From the NCBI GenBank assembly GCA_051294375.1, contig CM119271.1, forward strand, positions 14,266,770 to 14,330,769: a DNA stretch of 64,000 nt, written 5' to 3'. Under the pieces are notes generated by a model. That model saw nothing but the letters and a program-made list of their open reading frames with translations, was not told the origin of the DNA and searched no databases. Below are positions 7,218 through 63,996 of the stretch, in pieces. A program made the translations under genes and the position numbers. This stretch comes from Paraspadella gotoi (Eukaryota > Animalia > Chaetognatha). Position 1 is the stretch's first letter; each line of letters opens with the position of its first letter.

Positions 7218-9572
7218 TTATAGACGCACGAGCTTGGCGCTGGCGGCCCAGAGCTCCTTGGCCAACTTGCGGTCCTTGGCGCGGTCGGACGGCTCCTTGA
7301 CGCGACAGTCGGCGTAATAGAGGCCGGACTCTTCCTTGGCCTCGTCGCTGACGGCGCAATGGATGGTCGTCTGCGCCCCTTCCTCCCAGGTCTTGAGCCA
7401 GGCGGAGATGCAGGGACACTTGATGCTCGTGGAAAGCCAGGCGGGGGCGTGGCGACCCAACTCCGTGAAGGAGACGCCTGTGTGGACCGCGTAGGCGTTC
7501 ACTCCCTTGCCTAGCAAGAGAAGAAATGTAATAATTAAGTACTGCTTAAACTTAATTAAGTAGTTTAAAACTAAGTTTTAAGTTGCGTCGAGTTTTGCAA
7601 ACTAGTAAATCTTTCATTGTCATTGTTAACTAATATTCTCTTTCTTATCTTCCCATTCCTTCTCCTCCTCTTCTTCCTCTAGGCCGCTTTCTTATTGTAA
7701 ATCTAAAAACCCAAAATGAAATCTCCCCCCAACACTTTTTGTCAACGGACAGAGGGAGAGACAGACATCGCCCTGACCTTTGAGTCGTTTGGCCAATTCT
7801 TTGGTGAACAAGACGTTGGCCATTTTGGTTCGCTGGTATTGGCGGACGCCGTTGTAGTTATTCTCCATCATGAGATCCTTGAGGTTGATTCCGCCTCCCT
7901 TCTTGTGCGCGCTGCTGGTGATGGTAATAACGCGAGATCCCGGGCCGGACGCTCTCAGCTTCGGCAGCAACAGGTTGGTGAGCAGAAAATGACCCAGATG
8001 ATTGACGGCCATCTGCAACTCGAATCCGTCCTCGGACTTCATCGGTGACCACATCAACACCCCCGCGTTGTTGACGAGAATGTCGAGGCGCGCTTCCTCC
8101 TCCTCGTACTGGGCGACGAATTCGCGAACGGAGGCCAGTGACGCCAGGTCCAGCCTCATAAATTTGACGGCGTCGCTCCCTGAACAACAACATTATCGGC
8201 CTCTGTCAAAGAGTAATTTGTAGTTAATTGTAAATGATACAAATGGAGTAAATCAAACTCATTTGCATATTGTTTTGTTTGTAATGAATGATGAGTGTAA
8301 AGACTTTTTTTTTATTATTTTGGACTTATTGAGGCTAATTCAGATTGAACAGAGAAAAACGGACATTTTAATTATAGAAAGTGTATCATTTTTATAAGCA
8401 GTATTTTTAGTTGCGACGCGAGAACTCGCGGAACAACTCAATAAGTCACTTTTCGGTCGGTCGGTCTGTTATTATATCCTATTTATATTTTTAATGCTCA
8501 TTTACATATTGCAGTATTAAATCTAAATGTGTCTATTTTCATTTTGGATTTTAATATTAGTTATGTTTAACGGTTAACTTGCTTATGTTTAATGATTCCT
8601 TTATTTGTTAAGAAGTTTAACCATTATTCAGCTATGGTTTTGGGGATGCATTCTCTTGTTAAAGTCCGTTTCTCTTTATCAGAGCTCAATCAAATTAACA
8701 TCCTTAACAGTTAATCATTAATAATACTAAATTATGTTCAATAAGGTCTAAGCACAATATAAAAGAGATCAATAAATAGTGTTTAATTATGTTTCCATTT
8801 TTCTACTTCAGGCAAAGCTAACTAGCTATACTTATCAACGACCAAACCAGTTTATATAGTTTATATAGTTTATATAGTCAGCGAGCATTCTTCACTGATG
8901 CCAGGTCAAGTCAACATTCCATCAAGTAAGATATTAATAAAATGATTAACTGTTTACACTGAACCTTTTGGTACCTAATTATATGCTTATCTTATCTTAG
9001 GCAAACATACCCTCTTATACTCTTTTGTTATTTTTGCTCTCATGGAAAAAACCTCGAAACTAAACAACTGCTAGTGCTACCCTTTGTTTTTAAAGAAATA
9101 GTATAAAAAATAAAAGAGTAAAGATTAAATTCCGATGCAATGATTGTCAACATATTGGAATAACCGTTCTTGTTTCAATTTTAACTCCTTTTCCAAATAC
9201 TTGGATTTTGATACGGTTAAATACTTTTTATTAAAGGAAGCTTCGTACTTAGATAAAAATATGTTAGCCATATTCTTACACGCACTAAAAAACAGAATCG
9301 TCAAACGCGCAAAGAACTATATCACCATCAGCATCTAATAGTCAAATACCGCTGCGCTTTTTAACATCCTCAACGGCTGGGAGGGCGCGGTCCTCGTTGC
9401 GACAAGCCATGATGACCCTCGCGCCCCGCTTGGCCAGGTCGACGGCAGTTTCCTTTCCGATTCCCGTGTTACTGCCGGTCACTACGACGGTTTTCCCGTC
9501 CAGTCGCGCCTCGCTGCTGCACATCACGCTGCCGCAACAGCACCGGTGAAGGGCGCTCGAACAACAACCCAT
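7218..9572 (-). CDS. Retinol dehydrogenase 11/12/13/14-like short-chain dehydrogenase/reductase
   Basis: Three exons (9572-9350, 8179-7778, 7510-7218). Motifs: TGSNTGIG Rossmann, [20 protein letters not shown], catalytic [15 protein letters not shown]. Confidence 0.93.
8404..8468 (+). mobile_element. Probable end of a non-autonomous Helentron/DINE-1-like element
   Basis: TTTTTAGTTGCG...CAACTC.ATAAGTCACT followed by (GGTC)n repeats resembles the common invertebrate HINE 5' end; no matching other end was found. Confidence 0.4.
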
Positions 9573-10812
9573 TTTTTTAAAAATTCGATAATATTGGTTT
9601 TGAAAAATAAAACCTAATAAACAAAACTAAAAAGAACTTATTTTTAATAACTACAGAAGAAACGTCAATAAGAAAAACGACTATTAAACACAAAATAACA
9701 CCTAATTCCACCTAATTCAAAGAAATAAATTTATTTTCGCAGCCTCTCTTCCAGATGTTCTTTTCGTTTAATTTATTTTTATTTATTTAAACTTTTCTTT
9801 ATTTCTTTCCTAAGACTTAGGCCAAGTTGTATACTCCAGTTTTTTGTTTGTTTATAGTCAAATTTTGTTTTCCATTTAAACGTAAATTCGTAAGTTTAGA
9901 TGAGATGAGAAAGACTCGACTCGACGACCCTCTCCTTTCTCCGCGCAATTCGAAGAAAAACTCAGTTGTTTGTCTTCATCATCATCAATCATCATCATCT
10001 CTGTAAAAATGAAGGCGTCTGACTTTTATTGAGCCGGAAATTTGTCCATCAAATAAATGTATTAACAACAAGAAATAAATGCGAGAAGACGAAACAAAAC
10101 ATTTTGGGCGTCAGATGTTTAAATTAAAAACGAAAAATGACTGGATTAAGCGGAGATTAAGTGGGCCATCCCGTTATTAAATTAAAGACAAAATTAATGC
10201 AAAAAAAAAAATACGGAGGTGGGGCTTTATCAATAATAATATCATAAAAATATAAATGATATATGCCAAGAGACTCATTATCAACATAATCGTAACTCGT
10301 AAGTGTCGTTCCGAAAAGTAACGGTGCTCGATCCGTTAGCGGACAGTGTTTTTAACACCATATAAATATAAAACAAGCTAAGACTAAAAATGCCAACACC
10401 CTTTCTAATAACAAATAAGTTCGATGATTAATCGATGGAAGTTAAAGTCAAAAATAACAATGAGACAAAAAAAGCCTAAGATAAAAACGTTTAGTATAAT
10501 GACTAAGCCATTAAAAAAAAAGAAGGTGCGATGTTAGCGCAGCGTGCAGTCCCTCTCCGAATAATGGATCTTTTTTAATGTTTCATCTTTAAAAATCAGA
10601 AGTTAGAAATAAATGTTGCATTGTTGCATGATTTTTATTTATTAGTAAAGAAGGCAACGGAATGTGAGAGGCCGCCAGCGGTCCTCGTTCCTTTTCTCTC
10701 TTTAGATTGTCGCAATTTTCGCTCACAGCTCGAGTCCAATTCTTGCCCGATAAAATAATACAGTTTAAAGAGTCCTTAGTTGCCCCCCCCAATATTCTTC
10801 CCCCCCTCGTCT

Positions 10813-33196: not shown

Positions 33197-35836
33197 CTAA
33201 GTGGGATACTCGGCGAGACAAATCGTTTCCGTTCCCTCCTTCCCAGGCACGAAGAACTTCAATCTCTGCCACAACTCCTCCGTCAAAAAAGGCATGAAGG
33301 GATGAAGGGCGCGCATGGAGCCTTCCAAACAAAAGGCCAACACGGACATCTTGACGTGACGTACGTCGGTCTCGAGATCGAGGAGAAATGGCTTGGAGTG
33401 TTCCAAATAGTCGGAGCAGAGTTGCATCCAGAAAAATCCATAGACGGCGCCGGCGGCTTCGTGGAGGTTGAAGGAGTGGAATCCCTCGTTGCAGGCGTCG
33501 ACCATCGAGCGAAACTCGGAGAGGATCCACTCGTCCTTCGCGTCGAGATCATTGAGCCGAAAGAGGAAGGGAGCGGCGTCGTTGTGAATGAAAAAGAATC
33601 GCGTCGCCTGCCAGATCTTGTTGCAAAAATGACGGTGATGATGGATCTTGAGGACGTCGATGTTAATGTCGACGGCGCCGACGTCCTTGTGGCAAAGAAA
33701 GTATCTTAAAGCATCCGTGCCGCATTCGGGGATCCCCTGAGGAAAGGATTTTCTCTGTCCATCTTTGGCCTTGTTGATTTCCTTAGAGTCCAGCCCGGTC
33801 TTCTCCAACTTCTTGGCCAGAGCCTCGAGACCGAGGCCGGTGACCACATCGAGAGGATCGACGACGTTGCCCAAACTCTTGCTCATCTTGCGTCCGTGGG
33901 CGTCGCGCACCATCCCGTGTAGAAAAGCGCGGTCGAAGGGCAAACGGCCCGTCAAGTGACGCCCGAGCATCACCATTCGCGCCACCCAGAAGAAGAGTAT
34001 GTCGTGACCGGTTTCCATCACGGAGAGAGGATAAAGGCCCTCCGAGTCGGTCCAAGGAACGTCGGCACTACTTCCCTCGGGCCAACCCAAAGCGGCAAAG
34101 GGAAAGATGGCGGAAGAGAACCAAGTGTCGAGGACATCCTCGTCTCGCTCCAGAGAAAATTCCCCCACGGAAAGACCCGTTGCAGCGGAGGCTTTGATCG
34201 CGGCTTCCGCTTCGTCTCTAGCGACGACCCAGGAGGAGGATGAAGAGGAGGAAGTGGAAGAGGAAGAAGAGGTTTTGACTCGATAAGCGGGAATCCGATG
34301 TCCCCACCACAACTGACGAGACACGCACCAATCGTGATGCTTCGTCATCATGTTATTCCAAATTTTTGCCTGAAAAGCAGGAAACAATTGTAGATTTCCC
34401 TCGACGACATCGTCGACGGCCCGTTGCGCCATGGCCCCGCAATCCACGAACCACTGTTCCTTCAAGAGATATTCCACCACGTCCCCGGATCGAGAACAAA
34501 CGGGAAGATTCATGGGATGATCCCTTTCCCCGCGAAACAGGCCGAGCGATTTGAGGGCGGCGACGACCTTCCGTCGAGCGACGTAGCGCGGCATTCCCTC
34601 GAAGGGGCCGTCCGCGCGAATGACGCCTTCTTCGTCGATGACGCCGACGATCGAGAGTCCGTGACGCCGCGCGATCTCCAAATCTCGACGATCGTGAGCC
34701 GGCGTGATTTTAACGGCGCCGGTGCCGAAGGAAGGGTCGACGGAATTGTCGGCGACGATCGGGATTTCTCTCCCGTCGAACGGACATATTAACTTTTTTC
34801 CGACGAGACGTTGGAACCTCGAATCCTCTGGATGCACCGCCACCGCCACGTCGCCCAGCATCGTCTCCGGTCGCGTCGTCGCCACGACCACTTCGGGCGT
34901 CATCGACGTCGCCTCAACCAGCGAGTAGGCGAACGAAGTGAGAACGCCGAAGGGGATTTTCGAAGTGTAACCGGGAACGGCGACGAGAGTCCGCCCTTCG
35001 AGGGGACGAAGCTCTACCTCGACGTCGGAGATGGTGGAACGAAGATGGCAGCACCAGTTGACGAGCATGTTGGTGCGGTAGATGAGACCGTCCTCGTAGA
35101 GACGGACGAAGGCTTCGCCGACGGCGTCGGACATTCGTTCGTCAAGAGTAAAGACTCCTCGTCGCCAATCGAGTGAGGCGCCGAGACGTCGGAGTTGAGC
35201 GGAGATGGCGGCGACTTTTTCATCCTTCCAACGCCAGATGGCAGCCTCGAGCGCGGGCCGCCCGATTTCTGCCCGCGTCTTGCCCTCTTCCACCTTCAGC
35301 TTCCTCTCGACGACCGACTGCGTGGCGATGCCAGCGTGGTCGTAGCCAGGCACCCAAATCACACGGTCGCCGCGCATGCGTCGCCAACGGCAGAGGGCGT
35401 CTTGCACGCTGACGGCCATCGCGTGGCCGATATGCAGATTGCCGGTGACGTTCGGGGGCGGGAGAACAATGGAAAACGTTCGTCGCACATCGGGCCGTGC
35501 CTGCGGCTGTTGCTGCTGTTCCTGTCGCGGTTGGATTGTCTGCTGCTGCTGCTGCGGTGGAGATGCGAAAAAACCCTTAGCCTCCCACCATTCCCCCCAC
35601 GCGGCCTCCACGTAGGCGGGATGGTATTTGTCGGGAAAGAAACTCGTATCCTTTTTTCTTCCATCGCGCGGTCCGTCGTAGGTAACGGGGACGGAGATTT
35701 TCTTTTCTTTCTTTTTCTTTTTTGGAGCGACTTCCTCGGCGGCGGAGGCGGAAGCGGCGGCGGCGATCTGACGTGTTTTTGGAACAGAGTTTAAGTAGAT
35801 CGACCCAAAGTTAAGGCGGAGAATATGTGGGCGCAT
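33197..35836 (-). CDS. VARS2: Valyl-tRNA synthetase, probably mitochondrial; single exon, C-terminally short
   Basis: Uninterrupted ORF with PPPNVTGNLHIGH, DHAGIATQ, ATTRPETMLGD, WCVSRQLWWGHRIP, DVLDTWFSS, KMSKS, PFMPFLTEELWQRL. The N-terminus is transit-peptide-like and has no GST-like domain. Confidence 0.9.
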   Translation of the reverse strand: MRPHILRLNFGSIYLNSVPKTRQIAAAASASAAEEVAPKKKKKEKKISVPVTYDGPRDGRKKDTSFFPDKYHPAYVEAAWGEWWEAKGFFASPPQQQQQTIQPRQEQQQQPQARPDVRRTFSIVLPPPNVTGNLHIGHAMAVSVQDALCRWRRMRGDRVIWVPGYDHAGIATQSVVERKLKVEEGKTRAEIGRPALEAAIWRWKDEKVAAISAQLRRLGASLDWRRGVFTLDERMSDAVGEAFVRLYEDGLIYRTNMLVNWCCHLRSTISDVEVELRPLEGRTLVAVPGYTSKIPFGVLTSFAYSLVEATSMTPEVVVATTRPETMLGDVAVAVHPEDSRFQRLVGKKLICPFDGREIPIVADNSVDPSFGTGAVKITPAHDRRDLEIARRHGLSIVGVIDEEGVIRADGPFEGMPRYVARRKVVAALKSLGLFRGERDHPMNLPVCSRSGDVVEYLLKEQWFVDCGAMAQRAVDDVVEGNLQLFPAFQAKIWNNMMTKHHDWCVSRQLWWGHRIPAYRVKTSSSSSTSSSSSSSWVVARDEAEAAIKASAATGLSVGEFSLERDEDVLDTWFSSAIFPFAALGWPEGSSADVPWTDSEGLYPLSVMETGHDILFFWVARMVMLGRHLTGRLPFDRAFLHGMVRDAHGRKMSKSLGNVVDPLDVVTGLGLEALAKKLEKTGLDSKEINKAKDGQRKSFPQGIPECGTDALRYFLCHKDVGAVDINIDVLKIHHHRHFCNKIWQATRFFFIHNDAAPFLFRLNDLDAKDEWILSEFRSMVDACNEGFHSFNLHEAAGAVYGFFWMQLCSDYLEHSKPFLLDLETDVRHVKMSVLAFCLEGSMRALHPFMPFLTEELWQRLKFFVPGKEGTETICLAEYPT

Positions 35837-37233
35837 TCTTTGCGGGGTTGGGGAAGAGCGGGAAGTCCCAATTGCGATAACCACTATTTCATTTTGATTT
35901 TAAGCGCCGCACCGTCATTACTAATCCCCATTTGACGATCGTTTTTGGACATCTCCAAAAAATAATTAGTCGCTACTAATACCATAACATCAAATCTTGA
36001 GTGTCAATTAGGAATCGACGATCACAACTTTTGACCCTGGAAGAAAAGGGGTAGAAAAAAATTTAACCGTGCCATGTCGAAAAGTCACAGGTTGCATTGA
36101 GTTTAGTTAATGTAAAATATAAATAATTATGGCAAAGTAGAAATTAGCGAAAGAATTCCAACGAATAAAGAAGTCATAAAAATTGTGTCATCGCTGCGAT
36201 TTTTTTTTCCTCAATTCTTTTCTCCGGAAGAATTTTAATCATTTCTTTTTTAAAAATGTCATGCTCATAAAAAAAAGTTTACATCCCGACCTTGCGAAGA
36301 AATAAACCGGAAATGGAAAGTTACGTCAAATCATCCGGAAAACTCGCGTCGCCAACGAAACGACGACTTCTGAATCTGAATCTAGGATGTTCTTTCTTTT
36401 CCCCGGAAATTCAATTTCACCGTAAGAAAATCCGAGGCGGTTGGGCAATGGCCATCCGAAGCATGTATGAAACTTATACTATGGCATTAATTAGAAGAAA
36501 TAAAATAACCTATCGCTCTGGATTAACGCTTGTGTCTATTATTCTTAACTTTTAAGAGATATGAATTAAACCATAAGTTTATGTCCAACATCCTAACAAA
36601 CTCTTCGGATGGTCCATTCAATCAGGTACTTCGGACCCGACTGCTCGAGGTTTACGCAAAACTATCGTCCATCTAATGAAAATTTTTTAGCAGTGAAAAA
36701 GCGCTGAGGCAATTTGATAAAGACTATTGTCAGGGCAATTAAAAATATTTTTTAACCTAATCGCTAATTTAATAATTTAATTTTCTCTACAGATTAATTG
36801 AATAACCGAGTTTTGAGAAACAACACGACTAGGGGGTCAAAAGATAATGTTTATTGTTTATTAAAAATGAAAGCATAGCTTACAAATAGGCAAGAGCAGT
36901 TTAAAAACGAAAAAAAAAGGTCATGATTAAGTTATCGAAGACAAAATGAAATGAAATTTTAATAATCTTGGCGATTTTGATCTTAACTTAGTCTGAGAGA
37001 GTGAGAAAATGAAAAGAATGATGGATAGGAGGAGAGAAGAGTGGAGAGGAGCGGAGAGAGGAGAAGAGGAGAGAGGAAAGGAGGGAGTGAGAGGATGAGG
37101 GAAGGGAAAAAGGGAAAAGACTCGGAGGAGGTGAAAGACAAAAAAAACCTGACAAAAGGCGGGGAACAGTCTATAGAATGGATGGTTTCAAGGGGATAAA
37201 AAGGGGAAAAAAAACCCCGAAGGAAAGTCAGTA

Positions 37234-46572: not shown

Positions 46573-47753
46573 AAATATTGGGAGATAAATCTAGCAAATA
46601 ATATCCAATAAATTAAGTGTAAATTATTTTAAACTTTACTTGATAAAAAGCATACTTTAATTTCAATAAAAGGAAATATATATTCATGTACATCTCCGCT
46701 CATAACAAAACAAAAACCCGACGCGAAAAGAAAGCCAATAATGTAATAAATAAAAAAACCAAAAAAAAACACAATCGTCGAAGCAAAAACAGTAAAGTAG
46801 TAAAACGAAAACGAAGGGAAAAAACTCAGCCTCGTCAGCACCCGTCAGCCAAATCCGATGATACGGAAAGAAACCACTGCCGTACTTTACTGAGTTGAGA
46901 TAGACTCAGATATATATACTTTGTGTATAAATTTTATTTTAATCAATTATTATTAACAACTTCAAATCTAATTTCTCACAAAGATGTTGTGATTAAACAT
47001 GATGGTAAAATCGCCAAATTGTCGACAAATCGTATTTGTTAAAAATCGAGGGCAATGAACAATTTTGTATTAAGTTTTTAAGGCAGTGTTACAGATATAT
47101 TGGTTTTTTTTTTTGCCCATAAACCTTTTGGTTCTTGAGAGAATGATGCTCTAGCCTTTATTCAGATAATTCTAGCTGGCTGACTAAGCAATTTCCAAGA
47201 CTGCTTATTTGTGCCAAAATATTATTGGCAAGATGGAAGATGTCTATTCACTGCCTATAATTAGCTTGTCCTATATTGAAAAACTAAAGAAAAAGGAGTG
47301 CTTATGATAAGACAATTTAAAAAATTGGTAATTTAAGCTCGATAAAATGACCAGTGAATCACAGCATCCGCTGCATAAAAGCTTTTTAAGTTAATTTTTC
47401 AAAAAAAATCAGTTCGAAAATAGGGGATATTCCTTAACAATCTTATTTTTTTCTTTTGGTGATTCAGAACTAGAAAGGTTTGTAAGCAGAAACCAAAGTT
47501 GTTATGAGCATTCAACTTTTGTAATAGTAAAAAATTAGAGCTGCTTTTGGACAAGGTTTTTTGCTCCATGAAGAATTTTTTCTAGCGATGCCGAGTTTTT
47601 TGTACTGGTTTTGATAGCATTTTGAGAATGTTTTAAAGTGTTTTTAAGCAATGTTTTGAAATTTTTAAAAACGTCAATAATTTTTCTTTCATTTGTTGTG
47701 ATAAATTTTTCTTATTGGCATATAGTTTACGTTTAATGATTTTTTCTTTCGTA

Positions 47754-49002
47754 TCATCGGATTTGGCTCACGGGGTAGGCTTTCTCGAATCGTTTGTTCT
47801 GGCGTCGGACGACGTTGCCGTAACCCATGCTCATCTTGGAGCGCATGTGAACCTTGAAGGCGAAAGCGCGGTCGTCGCTCTGCTCCACCTTGACGCCCTC
47901 TAGTCTATTGAGGTTGGGCATCGCTGAGCAGAAGCGTTGGAAGACGGCGTCGAGGTAAGCGTGAGTCTTTCCCTTGGAGGAAAGTTAGATTGAAAATTGG
48001 GATTATTAATAAAACAGCAGTTAAACTTTAACTTAAAGAGATTATCCTTGGAGGAGTCCCCATTAGCCTTTTGTTTTTAACTTTTTCTCTCTCGCGAACC
48101 AGTTCGGATATGTCAAAAAGCGCTCGAAATCTAGATACGACATTCCCAAAATTCAAATCTTTTCCGCCTCCCAAGGCCTAACTTAACTTCGCAGACCTGA
48201 TCTTTCCCCGCTCATTTCTCTTCACCTTCCTCAACAGAGCCTGAGGCGAAAAGACGAAGGACCTGGCGCCGGCTCGGCGCCCGACGTCGCAGAGGAGCGA
48301 ATCGAGGACGCGTCGAGCGACGGAGTTTTTGGAAAAGTCGGTGGATTCGTCGGCGGCGACGATGAACTCCCACTTGTGATTCCCGCGGGTGAATTTAGAC
48401 TCGATCCAGGAAAGATCGTCGTCGACGTCAGTTTCGGCGGCGGCGGTGCCGCCGCCATCGGCGAGAATGATCGGCGTCGGCAGTCGCTCCATCTTGATCG
48501 CCGATTCCTCTGGCATCAAAGCTGGGGAATCGTCCTCGATGAAAATCGGATCGTCGTCGTCGTCGTCGTCTCCGACCTTGACGAGTTTGCGAAAATTCGC
48601 TCCGTCGACGTCGGTTAAAGATGTCGGCGAGGAGCGTTTACGACCCACACATCCGGAGGACGGAAGAGACGCGGCGGAAGTTCGTGGATGTTGCGAGGAA
48701 AAGATCCGCGGCGGCGGCGGCGGCGGAGGCGGCGGTTTGACCTTCAAAGAAAATCCGGCGTGACCTTCGAGCTCCAGTTCCAAATCCTCGCCCGAATTGA
48801 CGAGGCCACCGCGATTGAAGGCGTGGCAGAGATGGCTGGAGCCGGCGAAGCGCCTCCCTTCGGGCGTCTCCACGAGGAAGAAGACGTTGGATTCGGTGAG
48901 AGAAGTCAATTTGAGCGCGGCTTCGATCAACACGTGCGTGAGTGACGATTCTAGATTCTGAAGTTGATTCATTAGTGTGTAGAGAGTTTCCGCAGACCCC
49001 AT
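47754..49002 (-). CDS. Tandem family paralogue A (MADS-like N-domain + one C-domain)
   Basis: Exons 49002-48226 and 47972-47754. N-domain LIEAALKLTSLTESNVFFLVETPEGRRFAG; C-domain DLSWI..DFSKNSVARRVLDSLL..MPNL..FKVHMRSKM. Confidence 0.8.
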
Positions 49003-50705
49003 GGTCAACTCGAGAGAGAGTTATTGAGAAAAGTACATAGAATCTGAACATAAAAAACTAAAGGGAAAGTAAAAGCTAACATTACAACGGCTTACATCTT
49101 TCATCTGTCTTTAATACATCTGTCTTTTTTTAATACATTTCGTAGCCCGGAGCAAAAACGCTCACGGATGTGAGTTTTGAATGCATAAGAACAAGATGCT
49201 CTTGATTTTATTCGCTTTCCAACCAAACAAGCTAAGTTGGGCAGCAGGGACAACCATTTTTTTAAAACGGTGTCAAGAACCCACTTTCGCTTCTTGGTAG
49301 TGATGTCGCTCCAACTAAATTAAATCAATATAAGTATGTTGACGATAATGCTTTAGCCTCAGCCAATAGCCATGTAAGTATAAGGTTTTAGAAAAAAAAA
49401 GCCAGAAAAAAATATAAAACGTTTCAATGTCCAGTTTTTTTTATTTTCTACGTTAAAAAGCCAAGGTAAAACTCCTATTAAAGAATAAAGAAAAATAAAA
49501 TTTGAGCCTTAACAAAAAATAAAGGGTCAAATATATTGCAACTGTTGGACAAACTCTCGTCATGATCCGTCGTTCTTATTCGCCTTTTGTAAAGCTGTTT
49601 AAAAATATAAACAATCGATGTTTGTCTACAAACAATACAGTTCATTGTTATTTCATTGCTTTGAATAATCATGATTCTATTTCATACAGATTGCATTAAT
49701 GTTAGTTGGCCATCGTCGGGGTTTATACGGTTTATTTATACGGTTTATTTATATGGTTTATTTGTATGTTTGTTTATTTGAATGGTTATTGGTTCATACA
49801 GTTCATTTGATTAGTGGCTAGGCCGAGCTTACCTGAGTGATCATTGTTGTTTCTATCATTAACCGATGCTTGCCTTTTTGCTTACCTCTAGTTCTTGATC
49901 TCTAAAGACTCATGAAATCTTACGAAATAGATACTCTCAGAAGGGTGAGCAACTGACGGAAAACCCCGCTCATTACAACAATTATCCAAAGTTATTGGAT
50001 ATCGGGATGGTCTGCTGTATCGTCTCGTTCTTCTTTGATGTCGTCGACAGGATCAACGATACACTGAAGCTTGAAACCTGATCCGTCATTGATCTCTCTC
50101 TCTCTCTCTCTCTCTCTTTGCTGCTCGTAAAAGGATCAGCTTCGTCGTTACATATTACATATTACATCTTTAGGATGTGTGGATTTCTTAAAAACATTCG
50201 GCGTTTGAACGAAAACCTTTTTCGGTCTCGGCGGTTCCACACAGACGTCAGACGATTCTCTGAATCCTCTCCAAGACTGCGAAGGCCAGGTTCCATTGAA
50301 GATCTGCAAAAACAAAAAAAATGGACTCCTAATCTGAGCCCATACTTGTTCCTCTCTCGAAGGAAAAATAAAATTAAACCTGTCTTTAGAAAAAAGTGAA
50401 GACTGATGCCTGATGAGACGATAAATGAAAATAAAGCAAAATGAACAAACGATTCACGGAAAGTTTGTCCCCCCACAAAAAATGCCAACGTTAAAATAGG
50501 AGTTTCTATTGGACATCATTTCTACTATAATTTCATTCATGATAAAACGAAAGTTATTTTACAAATAAAACTACGTATTAACTAACTTTTTGGTTTAAAA
50601 AAATATTTTACCAACTATATTTTAGCACTTGATAAAATTAATGAAAGCTTAATAAAAACTCATTTATTGTCAACTCAATGGCAAACGCAAGAAGAACGTT
50701 CAAAC

Positions 50706-51814
50706 TCATTTCTTGATTTTCATTCTAAACCCCTTGATCATTTTGGCCCGAGCATGATCGGCGAACCGAAGGGAAGTTTGGTCCATCTGCCCCACATTAA
50801 TCTTTGCTAGTCGTTTCACGTTGGGAAAGAGAAAACACCACTTGATGAAGACGGCGTCGAAGAATCGACGCCGGAGTTGGGGTGCGCCGAGGCGTTGGAA
50901 AGAAGAGGCCGCATGGCGACCCACGTCGAGGAGAAGAGAGTCCAAGATCTGGAGGGGACATTTATTCAATCCGTCAGTCAATCTACAATATCATCTCCAG
51001 TCCGTCTAACCTTGAGGGCGACGTTGTTTTGAGAAAAGTCAGTATCTTTGTCGGCTCCGGCGATGAACTCCCACATGGGATTCCCCCGCGAGAAATTCTT
51101 TTCTATCCAAGTCAAGTCGAATTCATAGGCGGCTTTTCCGGCGAGTCGGCAGTTGCGGATTCTTTCCAGCTCCGTCGTTATATTGGCGTCAGAGTCGAGC
51201 TCGTCCGAAATCGTTGGGCAGTCGACGCCGGCGCCATCGCTTAAGCTCTCGGCGTCGCCTCCCTCGTCCAGTGCCAGCTGCGGCGAAGAGGATACGCGTT
51301 TGATTTTGGAAGGCGGCGCGGCGGCGTTTTCGGCGACAGCGGCTGAGAAAGAAGAGGCGCGTTTTTGACCGGTCGGAGTAGACGGGTGGACGGAGCGATT
51401 GGCGGATGCTTGATGACGGAGCGGCACAGGAAGCGGCGGCAAGGGTTTGGCTTTCAAGGTTGTGAAATCTGGGGAACAGTCGAGAGCGAGTTCTAAGTCG
51501 TGGCCAGAATTGCTGAATTCTCCATGATTAAAAGCCTGAGGAAATTCGTCAATCGAAGGACTATAATGTTTTCACGAATGTAAGCAAATATATTAATGTA
51601 CGAAAAAAGCAGAGATTCGACTAGACCCTTACCCGACCTGACAAAGGTGAGGGGATCCGACGAACCGCCGACCCAGGGGAGTTTCGACGAGAAAGAAAAA
51701 ATTGGACTGGGTGAGGGCGGCCAACTTGAGAACGCTCTCCATCAACACGTTCGACAGCGTCGACTGGTTTATTAAACAGAAGACGGATTGCGACGAGGGC
51801 ACCGCCGAAGTCAT
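50706..51814 (-). CDS. Tandem family paralogue B
   Basis: Exons 51814-51638, 51535-51012, 50948-50706 join in frame; same two domains. Confidence 0.8.
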
Positions 51815-52094
51815 TTTGTTTTTGTTTTTGTTTTTTTTTTGGTTTTTAATCGAAAAACTTGAATGAAAAATGAGGGACCAACAATCATAAAATAAATGAG
51901 TCAATAAATAGATGGCGCGACTGAAAAGGGAAAGAGAAAGAGTGGGGAGGGAAGGGGGGAAAGAAGCGGAGATTCGATTTCCGACTTCCGAATATTAAAA
52001 TGAAGTTGACTAGCGAGATTAGATGATCGAGATCGACACGGCACGTTGCTAAGCGACCGAGAATCTTTTTACTTTTTTCTCCTTTTTTTTTTAA

Positions 52095-53570
52095 TCAAGC
52101 GGGAAAAACTTGAATGGGGCCGGCGGCTTCGGCGGCGGCTGCTTCGGCGGCCCGGGTACGTTTGTTCAGTTTGGCGACGACGTTGGCGAATCCGGTGCTG
52201 AGCTTCGATCGCGCGTGAACTTTAAAGGGAAAGGAGCGGCGCTCGCTCTGCTCCACGCGCAGTCGTTCCAAGCGGTGCAAGTTGGGCATCAACAAACACC
52301 ATCTGGTGGAGGAAAAAAAAATTTAAATACTTGAAGAAAAGAAAAATATCGTAATCGTATAATTTTAACGGACCTGTGAAACACGGCGTGAAGATAAAGC
52401 GGACGCTTGATGCCTGACCAGCGCACGGCCGCCTCTCGACCCAGATCGTACAGCAGGGAGTCCAGCACCTAAACGAGCGAAACGTCGAAAGTGAGAACAG
52501 AATTTTCATCAACCTTCCCGATTTTTTGTTGCCCACAATCCCCCTTCCTCCAGCGACGAACCTTTCGAGCTACGCAATTTTTAGAAAAGTCTGTCCGTTC
52601 GTCGGCGGCTGCGACGAATTCCCACTTGGGATTTCCCCCGGAGAAAGCGGCGTCGACCCAGGACAAGTCGTGAACGCCGTCGTCGATGGGGGAGCCTCTT
52701 CCGCCCTCGTCGTCGTCCTCGGCGACGGAAAATCCGGCGTCGGTCGCATCAACGGCAAATGGGGGGTCGACGGCGAAAGCGGCTTCGCTAATGTCCACCG
52801 GATGAGGGGCGACGCCGGGCGGCGGAGACGCCAACTCCGTCTTGACTTCGTTGTCGACGAGAGAGAAGACGTCCTCCATGAAGACGGCGGCGTCGGCGTC
52901 ACCAAGTTTGGCCACTTTGGCCGGCGTGGATGAAGAAGCCGACGTCTTGGTCTTGAAGGCGAACTTCTCGGCGCCCGCCGGGATCTTTCTCTTCCGGCCT
53001 GGCTTCCTACCGGGGAGGTGAGGGGGACGAAGCGGGCGGGGCGCGGATCGGGAGGGGGAGCCGAAGGAGAGGGGAGTGGGAGACGGTTTCGCCTTCAAAG
53101 CGGACAAGTTGGAATCGCAGTCCAAGTGGAGTTCGAGGTCGGAGCCGGTGTTGAAAAGGCCGCCGTGATTGTAGGCCTGGAGGAAAAGGTTGAAAAGGTA
53201 AAAGGTTGAAAAGGTAAAATGTTGAAATAGCTATTTTGTCATTAGAAAATCGAAATTAAACTATATATTAAACTAAGAATAAAGAACAATATCCAAATAC
53301 GTCTATAAGATTCGCACCGCTATAAATGAAGCCTAATTTTAACCAATAAGATGTCATCTCATTTAATACACCCGAGAAGTGTCCAACCTGACACAAATGA
53401 TCCTTGCCGACGAAGCGGCGGCCCTCGGAGGTTTCGACTAGTAAAAAGACGTTGGACTCGGTCAACGACGTCAACTTGAGGGCGGCCTCCATCAAGATGT
53501 TTGTCAGCGTCGTCTCCATGTTGTGGAGTTGGTTGACGAGGCCGAAAAGAGAGTTGTTGGGCGAAGACAT
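52095..53570 (-). CDS. Tandem family paralogue C
   Basis: Exons 53570-53388, 53176-52562, 52468-52374, 52302-52095 join in frame. Confidence 0.8.
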
Positions 53571-53947
53571 CGTAATGAGTTTCTGATTTTAAATTCGAAG
53601 CTAAAAAAACGAAATGAAAATAAATAATTAAGGGGAGGGGATAAAAGGAACTGGAAATAAAGAGAAAAGAAGAACAGGAATATAGGAATTTGGAATTTTT
53701 TTCCATGATGTACTCCTGCTTGAGACGTTATAATTAAAATCATGGGAGGTGAAAAAAAAACACGTTACTTTCACTTATGGAATGAATCTGGTCATCAAAA
53801 AAAACTTGAGTCGTCAAATTCGAACTTATTCTACATGAAAGTTTGTCGGATAATTGATTAGAAGATTTAAATCACGAATGAAATAAGGCTAAAATGAAAG
53901 GAAGAAACGACTTTTTATGCTCCTCTCCTCTCCTCTCTCTCTCTCTC

Positions 53948-55049
53948 TCACGAAATCGCCACGACCCCATTGACTCTCTTCTTCCGAAACGTCCCGTAGC
54001 TCTTCCTCATCGTCCACCGCACGTATCGCTTGAAGAGTCTCTGCGACTTGTCGGCGCAATCGACCTTCCACCCGCGCAGCCGCTCAAAGTTGGGAATGGC
54101 GCGACACCATCGATCGCAGGCGCCGTCGAGATACTCCTTGGTGGCGGCTTCGACGTCCGGTCGCCCGTCAAAGGGAAACCGCAATGCAGCCTCTTTGCCC
54201 AACTCATAGATGGCGGAGTCGAGCACCTTTCGCGCCATCGAGTTTCGGGAGAATTCGGCCGAGTCATCGATGGAAGTCACGAAGCGAAACTTTTCGTTGT
54301 CGACGAGGAAATCTTCGACCCAAGAGACGACGTCGCCGTAGAGTCGAGAGTCGTCCTCGACGACGCCGTCGTCGCTAAAGTCAACGACGCCGACGGAATG
54401 ATTCTCCGCCGGGAGGACGAAGCAGTCGGCGTCGACGCCGTCGATCGGCGCCGGGACAAGAGAAGTCGTCCCTTTCTCGGCGGCGTCGAGATCGTCATCG
54501 GTGTCCAAGATCAAGACGTTTCCGTCGTCGTCAAATCCGGATCCGGAATCCGGCGTCTCACGCTTGAATCTCTTGGAAACGAGAGAAGATCCGGCGGAGG
54601 CGTCGGCGGATCTTTTTCCGGAAATATTCCGCGGAGTCGACGTGGGCGTGGTCGTCGTTCCCGACTGCGACGCGTTTTCCTGGCGACACTTTTGACGAAT
54701 CGAGGAGACGAAGGGATCGCATTCCAATTCGACGTCGGCGCCGGTGTTTTGGAGCACGCCGAAGTTGTAAGCCTGAGAGCAAGAGATTTATATATATATA
54801 AATACAGATATATGGTCCCACCCCTGTATACAGCAAATATCATTCCATTTCAAAACCATACATCCTCACCTGGCAAAGATGATCGTTCCCGGCAAAGACG
54901 CGTCCGTCCGCATTTTCGATGAGAAAGAAGACGTTGAACTCGGCGAGAGAAGAGAGTTTGAGAACCGTCTCCACGAGGACCGTCACCAACGACGTCTCGA
55001 AACTCTGCAGTTGCGTCACAAGGCCCAAGAGGCTCTTCGTCGTCGCCAT
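53948..55049 (-). CDS. Tandem family paralogue D
   Basis: Exons 55049-54870 and 54772-53948. Confidence 0.8.
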
Positions 55050-55228
55050 TTTATTTTTTCAAATTTAACATCTGAGATTTAAATGAGTGGAACAAACTAT
55101 GACAATGAGATGAGAATAAAAGCAAAGAAATTATTTTAAATAAGTATAGAGATCATTGGGGTTCTGCTTGGGCTGCTTGGGCCGATTCCGAACGAGTTTC
55201 GGTTGGTTTTAACCTTAGTTTAAAAGAA

Positions 55229-57181
55229 TCAATTGCTAAGTTTGACTTTCTTTCTTTTAGGCTTGACCAGCGTCCTCATGAAGGACCTTCGCATGCATCT
55301 TCTCACATAACCGCGAAGTTTAACTAGGCGCTTGTAAGACTCCTTCAACTTGATTTCCCGCAGTTCTTCAAAGTTGGGCAGGGAGAGACAAACACTTTCG
55401 GTAATTGCGTCACGTAAGGATTGATAATATCCCTGCAAAAACGGAGGTAATGGAGAAAAACGAATCATATGACAACTTGGATTCAGAACATCCATGTACG
55501 TAAACAAAACTAATCAGTAATCAGTAATCAGTAATCATTCACGAAGAAAATGGCATCTTCACTTTCTCTTTACACAATTCATCCAATCGGACGAAATCAA
55601 TTCTCAACGGCCCCAGACCAACCTGTCATCTGCCGACAGTCCGTGACTCATAAATCTCAAGCCGGCTTCCCTTCCCAATTCGTAAAGGAGAGAGTCGAAG
55701 GCTTTGCGTTCCATTGATCCAAAGTCGAAGTCGGTCTTCACCGTCGCCTCAAGGAGAAAGTCGAAATTGGGATTTCCTCGCACGAAATCGTTGACGATCC
55801 ATGAGACATCGAGCGTCGAGTTTATGGTTATGGCGGTTGACGCATCGGGATGAACCTGATGTGGAAGGTTGGGGACCCTGGGTCGATGCAGGGAGTCTTT
55901 TGCGCTTGACTCGATCGCAACATCGGTAAGCGATGAGCGTGATGAATTTAAACTAATGTAGGAGAAATCATGAAGAAATGGAAGATTAAAATTAGACAAT
56001 AAAAGTTCTTGACATAAGTTATATTATAACCAATCCTCACCCTTTTTTCCTTTTCTCCTCGTACTCAAAGGCAGACTCGAACCCATCGTCGATATTCGTC
56101 CGTACGTGACGTTCAAAATACAAAAACGCAAAATCGTCCCTTCGCTGATCAACGAGAAATCTTCTCAACTTTTCGAAATGCGGCAACGAGAGACAAAAGC
56201 GTTTGGCCAAAAGTTCGAGCCAAGCGTCCTTGTCGGACTCGGCCAACCCAAGGGCGATGAAGCGGTCGCCGGCCTCTCGGCCCAACTGATAGAGCAGACG
56301 GTCCAATGAGCGACGAGTCACGGAGTTAAGCTTGAGTTGGGATTCGCGCATCATGCGACGGACGACGTCGTAGTTTGAATTGTCGCGGGTGAATTTCGAC
56401 TCGAACCAAGAAAGGTCCAAGTTGGAGATGGCGCTGGAGATAGGATCCGACGGGTTTTTATCAAGGAAGAAGATGGGCTCAGTGAGCTTAGGCTCGAAAG
56501 GGGTAATATCCTCGTTGTGAAATTCATCCGAGTTCTTGTCATTGGCAGCGACATACGTGCCTGGTAAAGCTTTCGTATCTTCGTCACAAAAGTCGATCTG
56601 AGGTTCGATGAAATCAAGATGCATCGAGTCGAGTTTCTCCGTCTCTGTTTTAATTCTCTTCGAAGGCGACACAAAAGACGCCGCCGATGGAACCAACGCC
56701 GCCTCTCTTTTCCGATGTGGTCTCGATTTCGGCTCTGCGATGGACGTTGACTTTTTAGAAGATTGATTTTCGCTCTGAGGCTTATCAGAAGACAAGGAAT
56801 TCTCAGCTTCGCCAGCTTCATTGTCAATGAGTGACAAATACTCTTGGTCTTTAACTCTCAAAATTCCAGAGTCGCACTCGAGTCGAACGTCGCTTCCCGA
56901 GTCGGAAAGAGATCCCTCCACGTAAGACTGGAGGAGAAAAAAATAGTAAATCCAAAATTGAATAATGAAAACGAAATTCATATCTTGCCCACGTGGCAAA
57001 CCTTGCAGAATCGATCCTTCCCGGCGAAGACTCTACAGTCGCTCTTTTCGATCAGCAAGAAGACTTCGAGTTGCGCCAGAGAAGAAAGCTTCAACACGGT
57101 CTCCATCATCACATCGGCCAAGGAGGATCGACAGACGAGACTTCGCGGAAACCGCGGTGGACGGCGGGCGTCGTCGCACAT
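55229..57181 (-). CDS. Tandem family paralogue E (two C-domains; apparent 1-nt frameshift in the last exon)
   Basis: Exons 57181-57002, 56927-56041, 55952-55623, 55432-55229; the homologous frame shifts near 55411. Confidence 0.7.
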
Positions 57182-57356
57182 CCGAGGTTTAGGTTACGGA
57201 TATTATTTTTCGCAAACAACTATGACATACATGCAAACAAATTTAGAACAAAAAAATATGAATTCGAATTCCCATTTGCCTTCTTAGACATAGAAAAGAG
57301 TTTTTTTTTTACATCTTTCAAAAGTTTTTGCACCATTTTAACAACATTTTGTATTT

Positions 57357-57392
<36 letters not shown>

Positions 57393-57436
57393 GCAACAAT
57401 TTGCTTCTTTCTCAATCTAATGAGTCTCCCACTTGG

Positions 57437-60046
57437 TCACTTTTTTTTCAATGAATCCATGTTCCTGCTGAATCCCTTCCTGGTGCCTCTTTTGATATAA
57501 GACGCAAGGAGCAACTTGAAAGCTCCGTCTTGCAGCTTTATATTTTTAAGTTCTTCGAAGTTAGGAAGGCAGAGGCAAAACTGCTTAGTTACCGCCTCAA
57601 CGTAAGCGGTGACGAGTTCCCTGTGAAGAGAAGTTGGATCACTCAAAAAACATAGTACTACTATTAGTTACTACGTAATGAAAAAAAGTACCGCATATAA
57701 TTAACTTCACCAATCCACATAAAACTGTCAATCATCAAACGAAACGAACCTGTCATCATCCGCAAATCCCTCATTGAAGAATTGAACGCCGGCCTCCTTT
57801 CCCAGTCGGTAGATCAAAGCTTCAAAGACTTTTCGTGATTCGGAAGGGTAAGCGAAATCCGTCTGCGCCGAAGTCTCCGCGATCAGATCGAATCGCTCGT
57901 TATTGAGAATAAAACTGTCAACGATCCAAGCTAAGTTAAATTGCTGAGATGTATATTTATCATGATTTCCCATTCCATCCGTGTCGTCATTTCTCGGAGG
58001 CAAAGGATCCTTTTGTCGTAAGCCCAGAGCCCTGCAAAACAGAAATTACGCAATTTACGTAATAAACTTTGGGGAAATAATCGAAATTACTACTGTAAAA
58101 ATACTTGCCTTTTTCTTGCATACTGCAAAGCTCGAACCAAGGCCTTTCGGACGCCTCTTTTCATAAAGGAAGTAAAGAGCAAATTCGTTAGCCCATCTTT
58201 CATCTTAATTTCAAGTAGCTCATCGTAATTGGGCAAACAATGACAAAACTTCTTCAAAATTGCTTCAACATATGGACTGAAGAATTGACTGTAAAAATTT
58301 ACGACAAAATCAAACTGGTTACTGTATTATTGCAAAAACTTACTGCACCAACCTGTCTTCGTCAGAGTAACCCAGATTCATGAATTGAACGCAAGCTTCC
58401 TTTCCTAGTCTGTAAATCAAAGCTTCCAAAACTTTGCGCGATTCCGAATTTTTGCTAAAATCTGTTTCTCCCGTTGCCTCCGAAAGAAACTCAAATCTAT
58501 CATTGTTGACAATGAAGCTGTCGGCAATCCAACTAACGTTAAATGGCCGTAAAACTTTTTTAACTTCTTTTTTAATTCCTGGAACGTTGCTTTCCAAAGA
58601 GTCGTTGGGTGATGTCAAATTTGCTTCGCACTCCTGGCTTTCATTGACATAGGTGGTTTGAGATAAACAAACCTTCTGTCGTAAGGAAATGGCCCTAAAA
58701 TTAGTACAGTAAAATAAAAATTATCTTGGTTTACGCGAGATTATACAAGATTATAAGTAATAATTAGCTTTTCAGTCCAATACTCAAATATTTCCTTCAC
58801 TGCACTCACCGCTCTTTTTTTTCACGATGAACAAAGGCGAATTTGAAAGCCGTCTCGATGGTCGATCTCACATGATCGTAAAAATTCCGCGAAACTGAAG
58901 GAGACTCGGCGACCCGAAATTCACTCACTTTTCTAAAGTTGGGGAATGAAAGGCAAAAGGCGTTGGCCACTTGATCTACGCAAAAATCGCCTTCCGATTC
59001 TGCCAACCCAGAGGCGATGAATCGATCGCCAGTCTCTCTGCCCAAACGGTAGAGCAATCGATCGAAAGCCCGTCGCGTTACAGAGTTGATTCTCAACTCG
59101 GACTCGAACTTTAACTGGCGGATTTTGTCGTAATTAGGGTTGTTGCGGAAAAAATGAGATTCCAGCCAAGAGAGATCGAAAGATGATTCGTCTAAAGACA
59201 ATTGAGAGACGGAGGTTGCAGGTGTTGTCATTAGATATCGGTTGGAAGGAGATTGGTCAGTGAACGAGATTCGCTCGAGGGATGAGTTTCGATCTTCATC
59301 GACGGTTCGGTCGACGAATGAGATTCCGCCAACGATCGAAGTTCGATCCGCGGGTGAAATGAGATCGGCGGAATCCACGTCTTCCTCCCAATTTTCGTCT
59401 TCCGCAGAGTCGAACGCGTTGAACGACATTTTGTCATCGATGAAATTCAAATCCGGCGGCGTAGCGTTCGCATCATCAGCCGCAGCAGACGCCTCCTCCG
59501 TCTCCACCTCCGCCGCTTCTATTTTGATCAGTTTGACGTACGGCTCGAACGTGTCGTCCGCGCGACGACGTTTCGAGGGGACTTTGACGGGAGAGGATTT
59601 TTTAGATTTGGATCGCGTGACAGCGTGACTTCCGCTCTCTCCCTCGATGGGATTCTCTCTTTCTTTGACCCTCAAAGTTCGGCGATGAAGATCGCAATCG
59701 AGGCGAATGTCTCGACCGGAATCGGCGAGGGATCCTTCGACGTAAGACTGAAACGAGGGTTTCAACATCAAATTAAATTCCTTTCAACCCCTTGATAACC
59801 GTAGAAGGAACATTATGTTATCATATTACCATAATTTTCTAACTCAAAGTCACAAACCTGGCAGAATTTGTCTTTTCCGGCAAAGACCCGGCAATCGTCC
59901 TTTTCCATAAGCAAAAAGACGTCGAGTTGAGCCAAAGAGGAGAGTTTCAACACAGTTTCGAGGATGACGTCGATTAAAGAAGAGCGACACACGAGAGAAC
60001 GTGAGAACCGCGGCTGATGGGAGGCTTCTGCCAACGAGTGCGACAT
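57437..60046 (-). CDS. Tandem family paralogue F (three C-domains)
   Basis: Exons 60046-59858, 59747-58810, 58694-58353, 58288-58109, 58031-57750, 57620-57437 join in frame, using one GC-AG intron. Confidence 0.75.
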
Positions 60047-60437
60047 GGTTCTCTTTTATTTTCAGCCAGAGAAAATACTGTAGTGGTTTAGGATTTTTAA
60101 CACGGCTGGGCGGGCGTCAGTAGTAGAGGGTAAATTAAAATAAAAGTAGGACCCGGAAGTTTTTTTTTAAATTTATAAGAGTTTCTGGAAAATTAATAAT
60201 ATAAATATTAAAAACAAGTGTAAACAGACTAAAGATGATATATATTTGCGATTGGTTAAATATGAGTATTTTACGAAAAATGATTATTCCTCCGAAAACA
60301 GAAAAAAGTTAAACTTCAAAAAATTTTTTTTTTCTCTTTCTTTGAATCACTCCAAGAAATTAATTGGCGATATGGCAGTATGGCTAATTGGCTATTCGTT
60401 ATGATGCACTGTGGTCATGACAGGTCGGTTTCATTCG

Positions 60438-61391
60438 TCAAAGTTTATTTACGTCGATTACAAAAAATTGTTGTTGTTTTTTCGTAGTTTCGTCTCCGAG
60501 GTCTCTTTTCCTTTTGCGAATTCCCTCGTTGAAACGTCTTCGTAAGGTCGACCGAACGTAAACCTTGAATTTTCAAATGAGCCCAAAAAACAAAAAAATG
60601 ATGTAAAACAAACTACGTCTACGAATCTTATTTATTCGATATAAAAAACCGAATTTACGTAAAATATAAGCGAATCACTTTTGGCTCGTGCAAAGAGACC
60701 TCAACACAATAGTCTCCCTTCATAAGTCCCAAGGTGCCTCTCACTTTGAAAGACTCCTTCTTGATGTCGCTGTAGTCGATGGCTTCGTCCCTCAGCGACG
60801 CGAGATTCGGGAGAAGTTGAAACCAACGTCGCGAGATCTCGTCGAGGTAGGACTTGGTCGAAGCCTCTTCCTCGCGACTCCCGAAGAGAGGGTAACGCAA
60901 TCCCGCCTCTTTCCCGAGCTCGTACAGGGCAGAGTCTAAAACCTGGTCCCGCGAATACGTCAAATGTTTCTTTAAAAGTCGTACAACCAAATACGAACGA
61001 CGGATTACGACGAGAGTTTATGTCCAACAGTAAAAATGATCCCTTAATTTATTAAATTAGCTATTTTGCCCCCGACTTTGGACGGGCTAAGGTGAGTTAA
61101 GGCCTCTTATCCCTCCTACAAGATAACGCACTCACACACTAGTTAACTTTAAAAAAAAAAATGGCTTCCCTATCAATGAAGTAGGATAATGTTTTTATGA
61201 ACCGTTACATTTTTTTTTATGAATCGTATCATTTATTGTAGCTTCCATTAACTGTACCTTCCTAAGAACTGAGTTTCGCTCGAGGTCGGCAAGTCGGCGG
61301 GCGGATCGAAGGAACTCGAGCTTCTTTGCGTTGGGGACTTGGTCTCCGATCCAAGAGACGTCGAAGCAGAAAGAGTCATCCAACTCCAAGG
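60438..61391 (-). pseudogene. Tandem family member G: C-domain only, no 5' exon or start codon found
   Basis: Three intact in-frame exons (61391-61258, 60942-60745, 60563-60438) encoding FDVSWI..NSVLRKVLDSALYELGKEAG..LPNL..FKVYVRSTLRRRF. Begins at a splice acceptor. Confidence 0.55.
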
Positions 61392-61396
61392 CTGAT

Positions 61397-61508
61397 ATTA
61401 AAGGAGGGAGAAGTTTTCTTTATTATAAGAGTAAAAAATATTAAAAATATTAAAATATTAAAAATATTAAAGGAGGGAGAAGTTTTCTTTATTATAAGAG
61501 TAAAAAAT
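61397..61508. repeat. Local ~44-bp direct duplication separated by ATTAAAA(A)T repeats
   Basis: TATTAAAGGAGGGAGAAGTTTTCTTTATTATAAGAGTAAAAAAT occurs twice. Confidence 0.9.
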
Positions 61509-61769
61509 TCTGAATTCAAAACCTGACCATGAAATTTGTATAGGCTAACTAATATAGAAATTTTTCCAAAATCCATTCAAACATTAATCATTAATCAGTC
61601 TATTATGCCTTCTGACTTTGGACTAGCAACTTTGTTCCGAATTCAATTTTTCTCGATTCTTGGCAGCAAATTTGTAAATTTAAAATTTGTTTTTCCCCTT
61701 TTTTCGATTTCAGGTTTTACGGCGAGCGATACGAGAACTCCTTTGGCTTTAGAACGACAAAGTAACTTT

Positions 61770-61997
61770 TATGGTGGACTAAAATCCACCAACCGTTTAT
61801 CAGTGGCCATTGGTGCAGGAGGCAAGTCATTCGCCTCCCAACCCATAGGTCCGGGGTTCTAGCCCGGTGGTCGCCTAGCAGTTAAGAGGGACAGGGCGCT
61901 TTACCCGCCTGTAACACGGTGTTACTGCCTGATCCGAAGCTCAGCTTATATTGAACGGTTCTGTCACTAACACATAACAATAATTACTGCCTCTTCA
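61770..61997 (+). mobile_element. Dispersed ~230-bp repeat containing a tRNA(Gly)-like segment, copy 2
   Basis: A-box-like TGGTGCAGGAGG, anticodon-arm-like TTCGCCTCCCAA and B-box-like GGTTCTAGCCC at 61805-61873; inverted match to 16751-16984. Confidence 0.8.
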
Positions 61998-62281
61998 CTT
62001 TCATTTTATAAAACGAGACTTCTGTGACGATAAAAAGCTTACAAAGGTATGTTAAAAACCAAAACGTTGCCGAGTGTTTAAAATAAATAGAACATCAAAT
62101 TTTATGAACCAAGCAATATTGTATTCTTTTAAAAATCATTCAAAAATATCACATTTAAAAGACTAGTTTAACATAAGAGTTTAACATAAGAGAAAAAGAA
62201 AAAGTTTCCTAATCTGTTGACTAATTCTAACAAAAAACTAAATGTTCATACAATGAACGAAAGAAACTGACAATTAACTTA

Positions 62282-62998
62282 CAGAAGGCTTCATATTATA
62301 AAATGTGGTACCCTTTTTTGTGACCAGAACACGTTCCTAGAAAACTACTGAATAGAATTTAATGAAATTTTGCATGCGGAGTACCAGTAGTGATACAAAT
62401 GGAACTATCGAGGCGAATTTTTATATTCCACCCCTAAACTGAGATAAGGGGCCCTAAGGGGGCAGCCCCTGAGGGCCACAAATAGTCAAAAATTTTTTTC
62501 AAATTTTTTTATTATTTTTGTTTTAAACAGTTGGACTCCTCCACAAAAACGTATTTATTACCTCAAAAATATTCATTTACCTTAAGTTTTAGCTTCATGA
62601 ACATCAGCAGTTAAAGTCAGATTTTTAATAATTTGGGAAAATTGGAAGTAAAACGATGAACCATGCAACTTTAACTATACTTAATTATTGCAAATTTATC
62701 AATTTTAGTTCTAAAATGTTTTTTTCTTATGTTGAAAACGTCAATGCACCTGATGCTACTAAAAAATTTGGAAAAAAAAAAAAAAAAATTTAGCATTTTT
62801 TGGCCCCCCAGGGGTCCACCCCCAGGGCCCTGTATCTCTTGTCAGGGGTTGAATATCAAAATTCGCCTCGATAGTTCCATTTATATAGTCATTAGCACTC
62901 TAAATGTAAAATTTCATTAAATTCGATTGGGTAGTTTGGTGGGAACAGATTCTGGTAACAAAAAAGGGGTACTACATTTTATAATATGAAGCCTTCTG
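62282..62998. mobile_element. Tc1/mariner-type MITE with long TIRs
   Basis: Perfect terminal CAGAAGGCTTCATATTATAAAATGT inverted repeat, extending imperfectly for about 220 bp; TA on both flanks. Confidence 0.9.
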
Positions 62999-63118
62999 TA
63001 TTTGGTAAGCTATTATATGAGGCAAAAATTAAGTTTTATAGCTTGGATTAAAATTCCATTTCTTGACGATAAGAAACGATCGAGTTTCTGGACGAAACGA
63101 GGCTTGAGAAAGGCATTG

Positions 63119-63996
<878 letters not shown>

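Follow-up and report, generated by a model that had tools for sequence, protein, structure and literature searches.

A tandem gene family of Paraspadella gotoi with a predicted SRF/NRF1-like N-terminal module and repeated helical C-terminal domains

To our knowledge, animals hold very few MADS-fold proteins, and a tandem array that the initial annotation had read as MADS-box derived raises the question of what kind of protein it encodes. The array lies in a 64,000-nucleotide stretch of Paraspadella gotoi DNA (the window, to which all coordinates refer) and forms a minus-strand cluster at 47754–61392, with six whole genes, A–F, and one partial gene, G (Table 1).

Gene models, transcripts and selection

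Of the seven paralogues counted initially, the six genes A–F indeed share an N-terminal domain, while the seventh, G, holds a C-terminal domain (C-domain) only: neither an in-frame Met nor an N-terminal domain (N-domain) was found in its exons, and the gene is longer than first drawn, a third exon carrying it to a stop at 60438. The models of A, B, C, D and F are open frames with GT-AG introns, intron 1 falls at the identical codon in B–F, a further intron is common to B, C and G, and in the window DNA at large introns are short and AT-rich and exons GC-rich. No upstream exon was found for the C-domain remnant between genes A and B. Between this remnant and gene B, exon-like minus-strand frames at 49950–50290 are interrupted by a microsatellite; with a psi-K-x-E motif and an acidic stretch, they may represent the linker of an eighth paralogue in decay. 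The tRNA-Pro that ARAGORN calls at 58371–58465 falls within one of the coding exons of F and is most likely due to chance; Rfam gave no match in 46600–63200.

Table 1. Features of the array (positions in the window; exons in the direction of reading)
Feature	Position	Strand	Description
Gene A	47754..49002	-	331 aa; exons 49002-48226, 47972-47754; N-domain, linker, one C-domain
N-domain of A	48742..48993	-	residues 4-87; model used for fold searches
C-domain remnant	49104..49319	-	second half of C-domain; profile match E 9e-6
Gene B	50706..51814	-	314 aa; exons 51814-51638, 51535-51011, 50948-50706; open frame, GT-AG introns
Gene C	52095..53570	-	366 aa; exons 53570-53388, 53176-52562, 52468-52374, 52302-52095; open frame, GT-AG introns
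Gene D	53948..55049	-	334 aa; exons 55049-54870, 54772-53948; 97-nt GT-AG joint in RNA-like run
C-domain of D	53951..54352	-	134 aa modelled; model pLDDT 90.5
Gene E	55229..57181	-	exons 57181-57002, 56927-56041, 55952-55623, 55432-55229; N-domain, linker, two C-domains
Gene F	57437..60046	-	704 aa; six exons; N-domain, linker, three C-domains
Gene G	60438..61392	-	5'-incomplete; exons 61392-61258, 60942-60745, 60563-60438; C-domain only

Sequencing run X9 (one study) is RNA by guess only; its contigs skip GT-AG introns. Among the joints listed, they skip the intron of D and, in RNA-like contig 29, introns 1 and 2 of F where modelled, a piece of contig 29 ends at the intron-3 donor of F, another ends at the donor of A (48225), and a piece over G ends at 60561, two bases from the modelled last acceptor. 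These joints and ends document, in part, the splicing of A, D, F and G; the little RNA-like cover over B and the low cover over C in X9 carry no evidential weight. One RNA-like contig runs unbroken over 59858–60561, from the last exon of G through the intervening gap into the first exon of F, and may represent read-through, overlapping UTRs or a polycistronic transcript. X9 also has loose ends at 51727 and 53390 and shares one joint with run X3; read by hand, these give N-domain sequence from one or more additional paralogues that lie beyond the window. The one-base frame break near 55411 in gene E is likely an assembly error, since all four runs show two indels relative to the window at 55393/55396 and an X1 contig over 53959–55427, with three gaps (the place of the third is not displayed), exceeds the window sequence by one base. 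Variant classes, drawn from 40 of 135 differences with the 16 lying outside genes A–G set aside, gave 4 non-coding, 14 synonymous and 6 non-synonymous among the 24 variants within the genes, and between N-domains pN (0.11–0.44) is below pS (0.58–0.85) in 15 of 15 pairs. The genes are under purifying selection, and the family is real, transcribed and apparently unnamed.

The N-terminal domain compared with SRF, MEF2 and NRF1

The N-domains of A–F are 37–77% identical in pairwise comparison (E and F 77%, the other 14 of 15 pairs 37–63%), and 14 columns of their exon-1 alignment are invariant. The N-terminal motif quoted earlier for gene C is present; the domain measures some 80 aa, as opposed to the 60 first proposed, and runs into exon 2. 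A profile built from ten outside homologues only recovers all six first exons at E values from 7e-34 to 3e-13 in a search of the window's 2382 six-frame segments, and the family is therefore not an artefact of self-comparison. The model of the A domain (mean pLDDT 63) comprises a helix (2–32), two strands (38–43 and 46–51), a second helix (53–60) and a low-confidence tail, which is the helix, beta-hairpin, helix topology of MADS proteins; the N-domain fold is predicted to resemble that of SRF and NRF1. In the structural search with this model SRF and Mcm1 head the list numerically, structural alignments to MADS chains have 7–22% identity, and no zinc-binding pattern occurs in the domain. A homodimer prediction for the A domain scored 0.02, with the alignment not used and the fold uncertain, and is evidence for neither side.

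Membership of the MADS-box family proper is a different matter. The best Pfam SRF-TF (PF00319) match reaches 11.8 bits (E 0.18), far under the gathering cut-off of 26 for this family of SRF and Mcm1 (type I) and MEF2 and plant MIKC proteins (type II), and it occurs only in homologue P0005 (1 of 19 rows, 1 of 5 rows for the same protein and 0 of 11 across three scans). The gap-free SRF alignment put forward initially lacks a significant profile match, although its register does fit the ranges of the structural alignments. At the positions that we presume, by SRF numbering, to correspond to the DNA contacts on helix 1, an invariant Glu takes the place of the DNA-contacting Lys of SRF, and no Lys or Arg is found in the ten positions around it in six of six genes. 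Upstream of this Glu, A–D have 0–1 K/R and lack the basic N-terminal arm of SRF- and MEF2-type proteins; E and F hold 5 and 3, so that the earlier wording, 'neutral or acidic', is too sweeping. Where MADS factors have the arm, the first helix is prolonged by an amphipathic stretch that is conserved and may lengthen a dimer interface in replacement of it. Unlike MADS-box factors, the family furthermore adds a conserved C-domain. On sequence and on DNA contacts the family fails MADS-box membership. The N-domain might also be unrelated to MADS and NRF1, a small helix-hairpin-helix module that arose by convergence in generic nuclear or cytoplasmic scaffolds; we judge this unlikely.

NRF1 provides the closer parallel. 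In the structural report (PMC10810270), NRF1 is described as an SRF-like dimerisation domain which a flexible linker joins to a DNA-binding domain of its own, helical in structure, and the family has the layout of NRF1, Erect wing and P3A2 (PDB 8K4L), that is, a dimeriser-type N-domain, a linker and a second domain. The region of NRF1 with which the N-domain aligns is the one required for dimerisation. According to that report, the NRF1 linker is about 28 aa long (110–160 aa here) and the NRF1 dimerisation domain retains contact with the DNA backbone, in contrast to helix 1 of the present family, devoid of basic residues; the C-domain here, moreover, is some 120 aa, occurs in up to three copies, and the family is tandemly expanded. 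Four Pfam scans at E<=10, in which HMMER filters drop most matches above 0.1, returned no NRF1 family, and judged by sequence the family is not an NRF1 member. We favour, at a probability of roughly 0.48, the interpretation that this spliced, conserved two-part family joins a MADS/NRF1-like pairing module to one to three helical C-domains and acts as NRF1-like dimeric nuclear regulators. A tentative and somewhat doubtful alternative is that the family constitutes a third animal MADS-fold lineage besides SRF/MEF2 and NRF1, with a portable, DNA-free dimeriser that serves one invertebrate group, much as ZAD serves insects, for private nuclear regulators based either on a DNA-binding fold not seen before or on RRMs.

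For the NRF1-like regulators, pairing would bring together the N-domains of two identical chains through antiparallel helices and a four-stranded sheet, as in SRF and NRF1. Homodimerisation through the N-domain is most likely for each protein, and heterodimers of E with F are possible. Broad mixing is argued against by ZAD paralogues which, according to PMC7913770, do not heterodimerise at 46% homology. This precedent also bears on the combinatorial function proposed initially, in which DNA-binding-dead MADS decoys would heterodimerise and titrate SRF or MEF2. The predicted MADS-like topology, the loss of basic contacts on helix 1, the side-by-side paralogues and the high ranking of SRF and Mcm1 are all in keeping with such decoys; nothing points to titration itself, the identity to MADS chains is low, 14 of the 15 window pairs lie in the range around the ZAD example, and a conserved and repeated C-domain would be needless for a decoy, for which reasons we consider this reading improbable.

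Linker, C-terminal domains and relatives

The 110–160-aa linker is poorly conserved and carries acidic and basic patches, of which the latter may import the protein into the nucleus. The psi-K-x-E motif is an established SUMO site, and all five instances listed initially are present (IKME A169, VKTE C172, FKRE D129, IKTE E152 and IKIE F137). Five of six linkers contain one (none in B), where shuffling yields 0.79 on average (P=0.001, 5000 shuffles), as do 7 of 10 homologues beyond residue 90, the latter count being without control. Were these sites SUMOylated, as the motif suggests, repression or chromatin scaffolding would come into view.

The second conserved domain is helical as had been described, although longer than the ~110 aa given for it, at about 120 aa, and repeated: there are ten copies, two of them in E and three in F, plus the half-domain remnant, at 22–59% identity among each other. 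The copy of D, which is free of introns and was chosen for folding, is modelled as a bundle, for the most part of helices, that includes a short hairpin and whose last helix is long and basic. Fold searches with it gave no clear match, and BEN, DUF4806 and the NRF1 DNA-binding domain are absent from the rows listed; the lead to BEN and DUF4806 is presumably one of motif likeness. ENTH-domain rows were rejected at TM 0.15–0.21. A Pfam scan of 24 rows indicated no clear family, and a language-model search no usable match. The C-domain is a likely, putative nucleic acid binder. Its basic last helix would read DNA, and the repeats in E and F would raise valency, such that a homodimer, through its long tethers, would offer DNA two, four or six C-domains.

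Homologues were retrieved by three word-seeded searches, which returned 1 of 1426, 8 of 7991 and 5 of 7995 candidates and together at least 12 distinct clusters; the taxonomic range rests on these searches, of about 8000 candidates at most, and may miss distant invertebrate relatives. None of 28 cluster members covered for P0001–P0008 is named, and P0032 is labelled hypothetical. Of 10 longer homologues, 7 are matched by a C-domain profile built solely from window sequences; the match is strong in P0004 and weak in five others. In P0031, on a long branch with the helix-strand-strand motif kept, the N-domain is re-used in front of several RRMs, a block which may resemble SPEN/RBM15. One might suppose that promoter DNA is not the target and that the family acts on RNA or RNA–DNA hybrids, in silencing or in processing during transcription, with varied nucleic-acid readers attached to the dimer module; RRMs are found in only 1 of 12 homologues, and the Z and E values in question lie inside the tool's stated background for helical bundles, so that we regard this as quite improbable next to regulators that read DNA.

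In trees of the N-domains (fragments P0030 and P0032 left out) and C-domains (P0005, P0008 and P0030–P0032 left out), E groups with F as its sister (100/99), as do the first C-domains of the two (100/99), the second and third C-domains of F pair (99/99), and the C-domains of A, B and C group at 94/92. A single origin of the six window N-domains is neither shown nor rejected (p-AU 0.18). We infer that the array arose by local duplication and the second and third C-domains of F by internal duplication. Relatives were not confirmed in viral contigs (146 pattern matches) or metagenome contigs (133 and 590 pattern matches), nor found in plasmids. A literature search, judged from titles and abstract starts, with subscription papers mostly outside its scope and supplements not included, gave no paper describing the family; the main text of an article on an invertebrate genome with tandem expansions (PMC12460157), as far as accessible, has no MADS or SRF, and we draw no link from this article to the window.

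Surroundings of the array and wider meaning

The neighbouring open reading frames presumably encode a valyl-tRNA synthetase-like and a PI4-kinase-like protein and, directly next to the array, an F-box protein (below) and GDP-fucose synthase (above). The first is a 900-codon uninterrupted frame at 33197–35899 on the minus strand of an otherwise intron-rich genome. At 46841–47774, where DNA depth is very high, lies a MITE-like element whose 33-nt ends are inverted repeats (88%), its right arm supplying the last codons and stop of gene A, and an element of about 720 nt with 40-nt inverted ends (95%) at 62280–63000, between G and the GDP-fucose synthase gene, sits where the missing 5' exons of G would be expected. 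Two opposite copies of a high-depth repeat lie at 49551–49973, between B and A, and at about 60990–61194, in the first intron of G; a GC-richer plus-strand stretch at 61790–61880 resembles, on inspection by eye, the head of a tRNA-derived SINE and is unreported by ARAGORN and Rfam.

Such MITE-like repeats in and around the array, and the frequent transposon origin of lineage-restricted animal DNA-binding families (PMC10027918), invite the view that these are accessory genes from a DNA transposon or virus, either domesticated or mobile to this day. Within the window nothing marks them as transposon accessory ORFs: no inverted repeat pair brackets any gene or the array, no transposase was recognised by eye among the ORFs, introns occupy shared positions, and X1 DNA depth, a weak measure, is flat at 25–46 over 50065–60954 against 1000–9760 in repeat-bearing bins. 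A mobile origin is accordingly very improbable.

BTB is an N-terminal dimerisation module that follows the same modular logic as proposed here for NRF1-like regulators. ZAD proteins likewise place a small N-terminal module before a disordered linker and interchangeable nucleic-acid-binding domains and have undergone lineage expansion (PMC7913770). Both have an unrelated fold, and with no C2H2 arrays in the present family the analogy is one of logic only. If our interpretation is true, the family shows how the NRF1 design, a dimeriser with a separate reader, can arise and multiply, and it adds a confidently folded domain of about 120 aa, with no clear known fold, to the candidate nucleic-acid readers. 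Transcription-factor counts based on Pfam miss these genes entirely, and lineage-specific regulators of such a type would therefore be invisible in current genome surveys.
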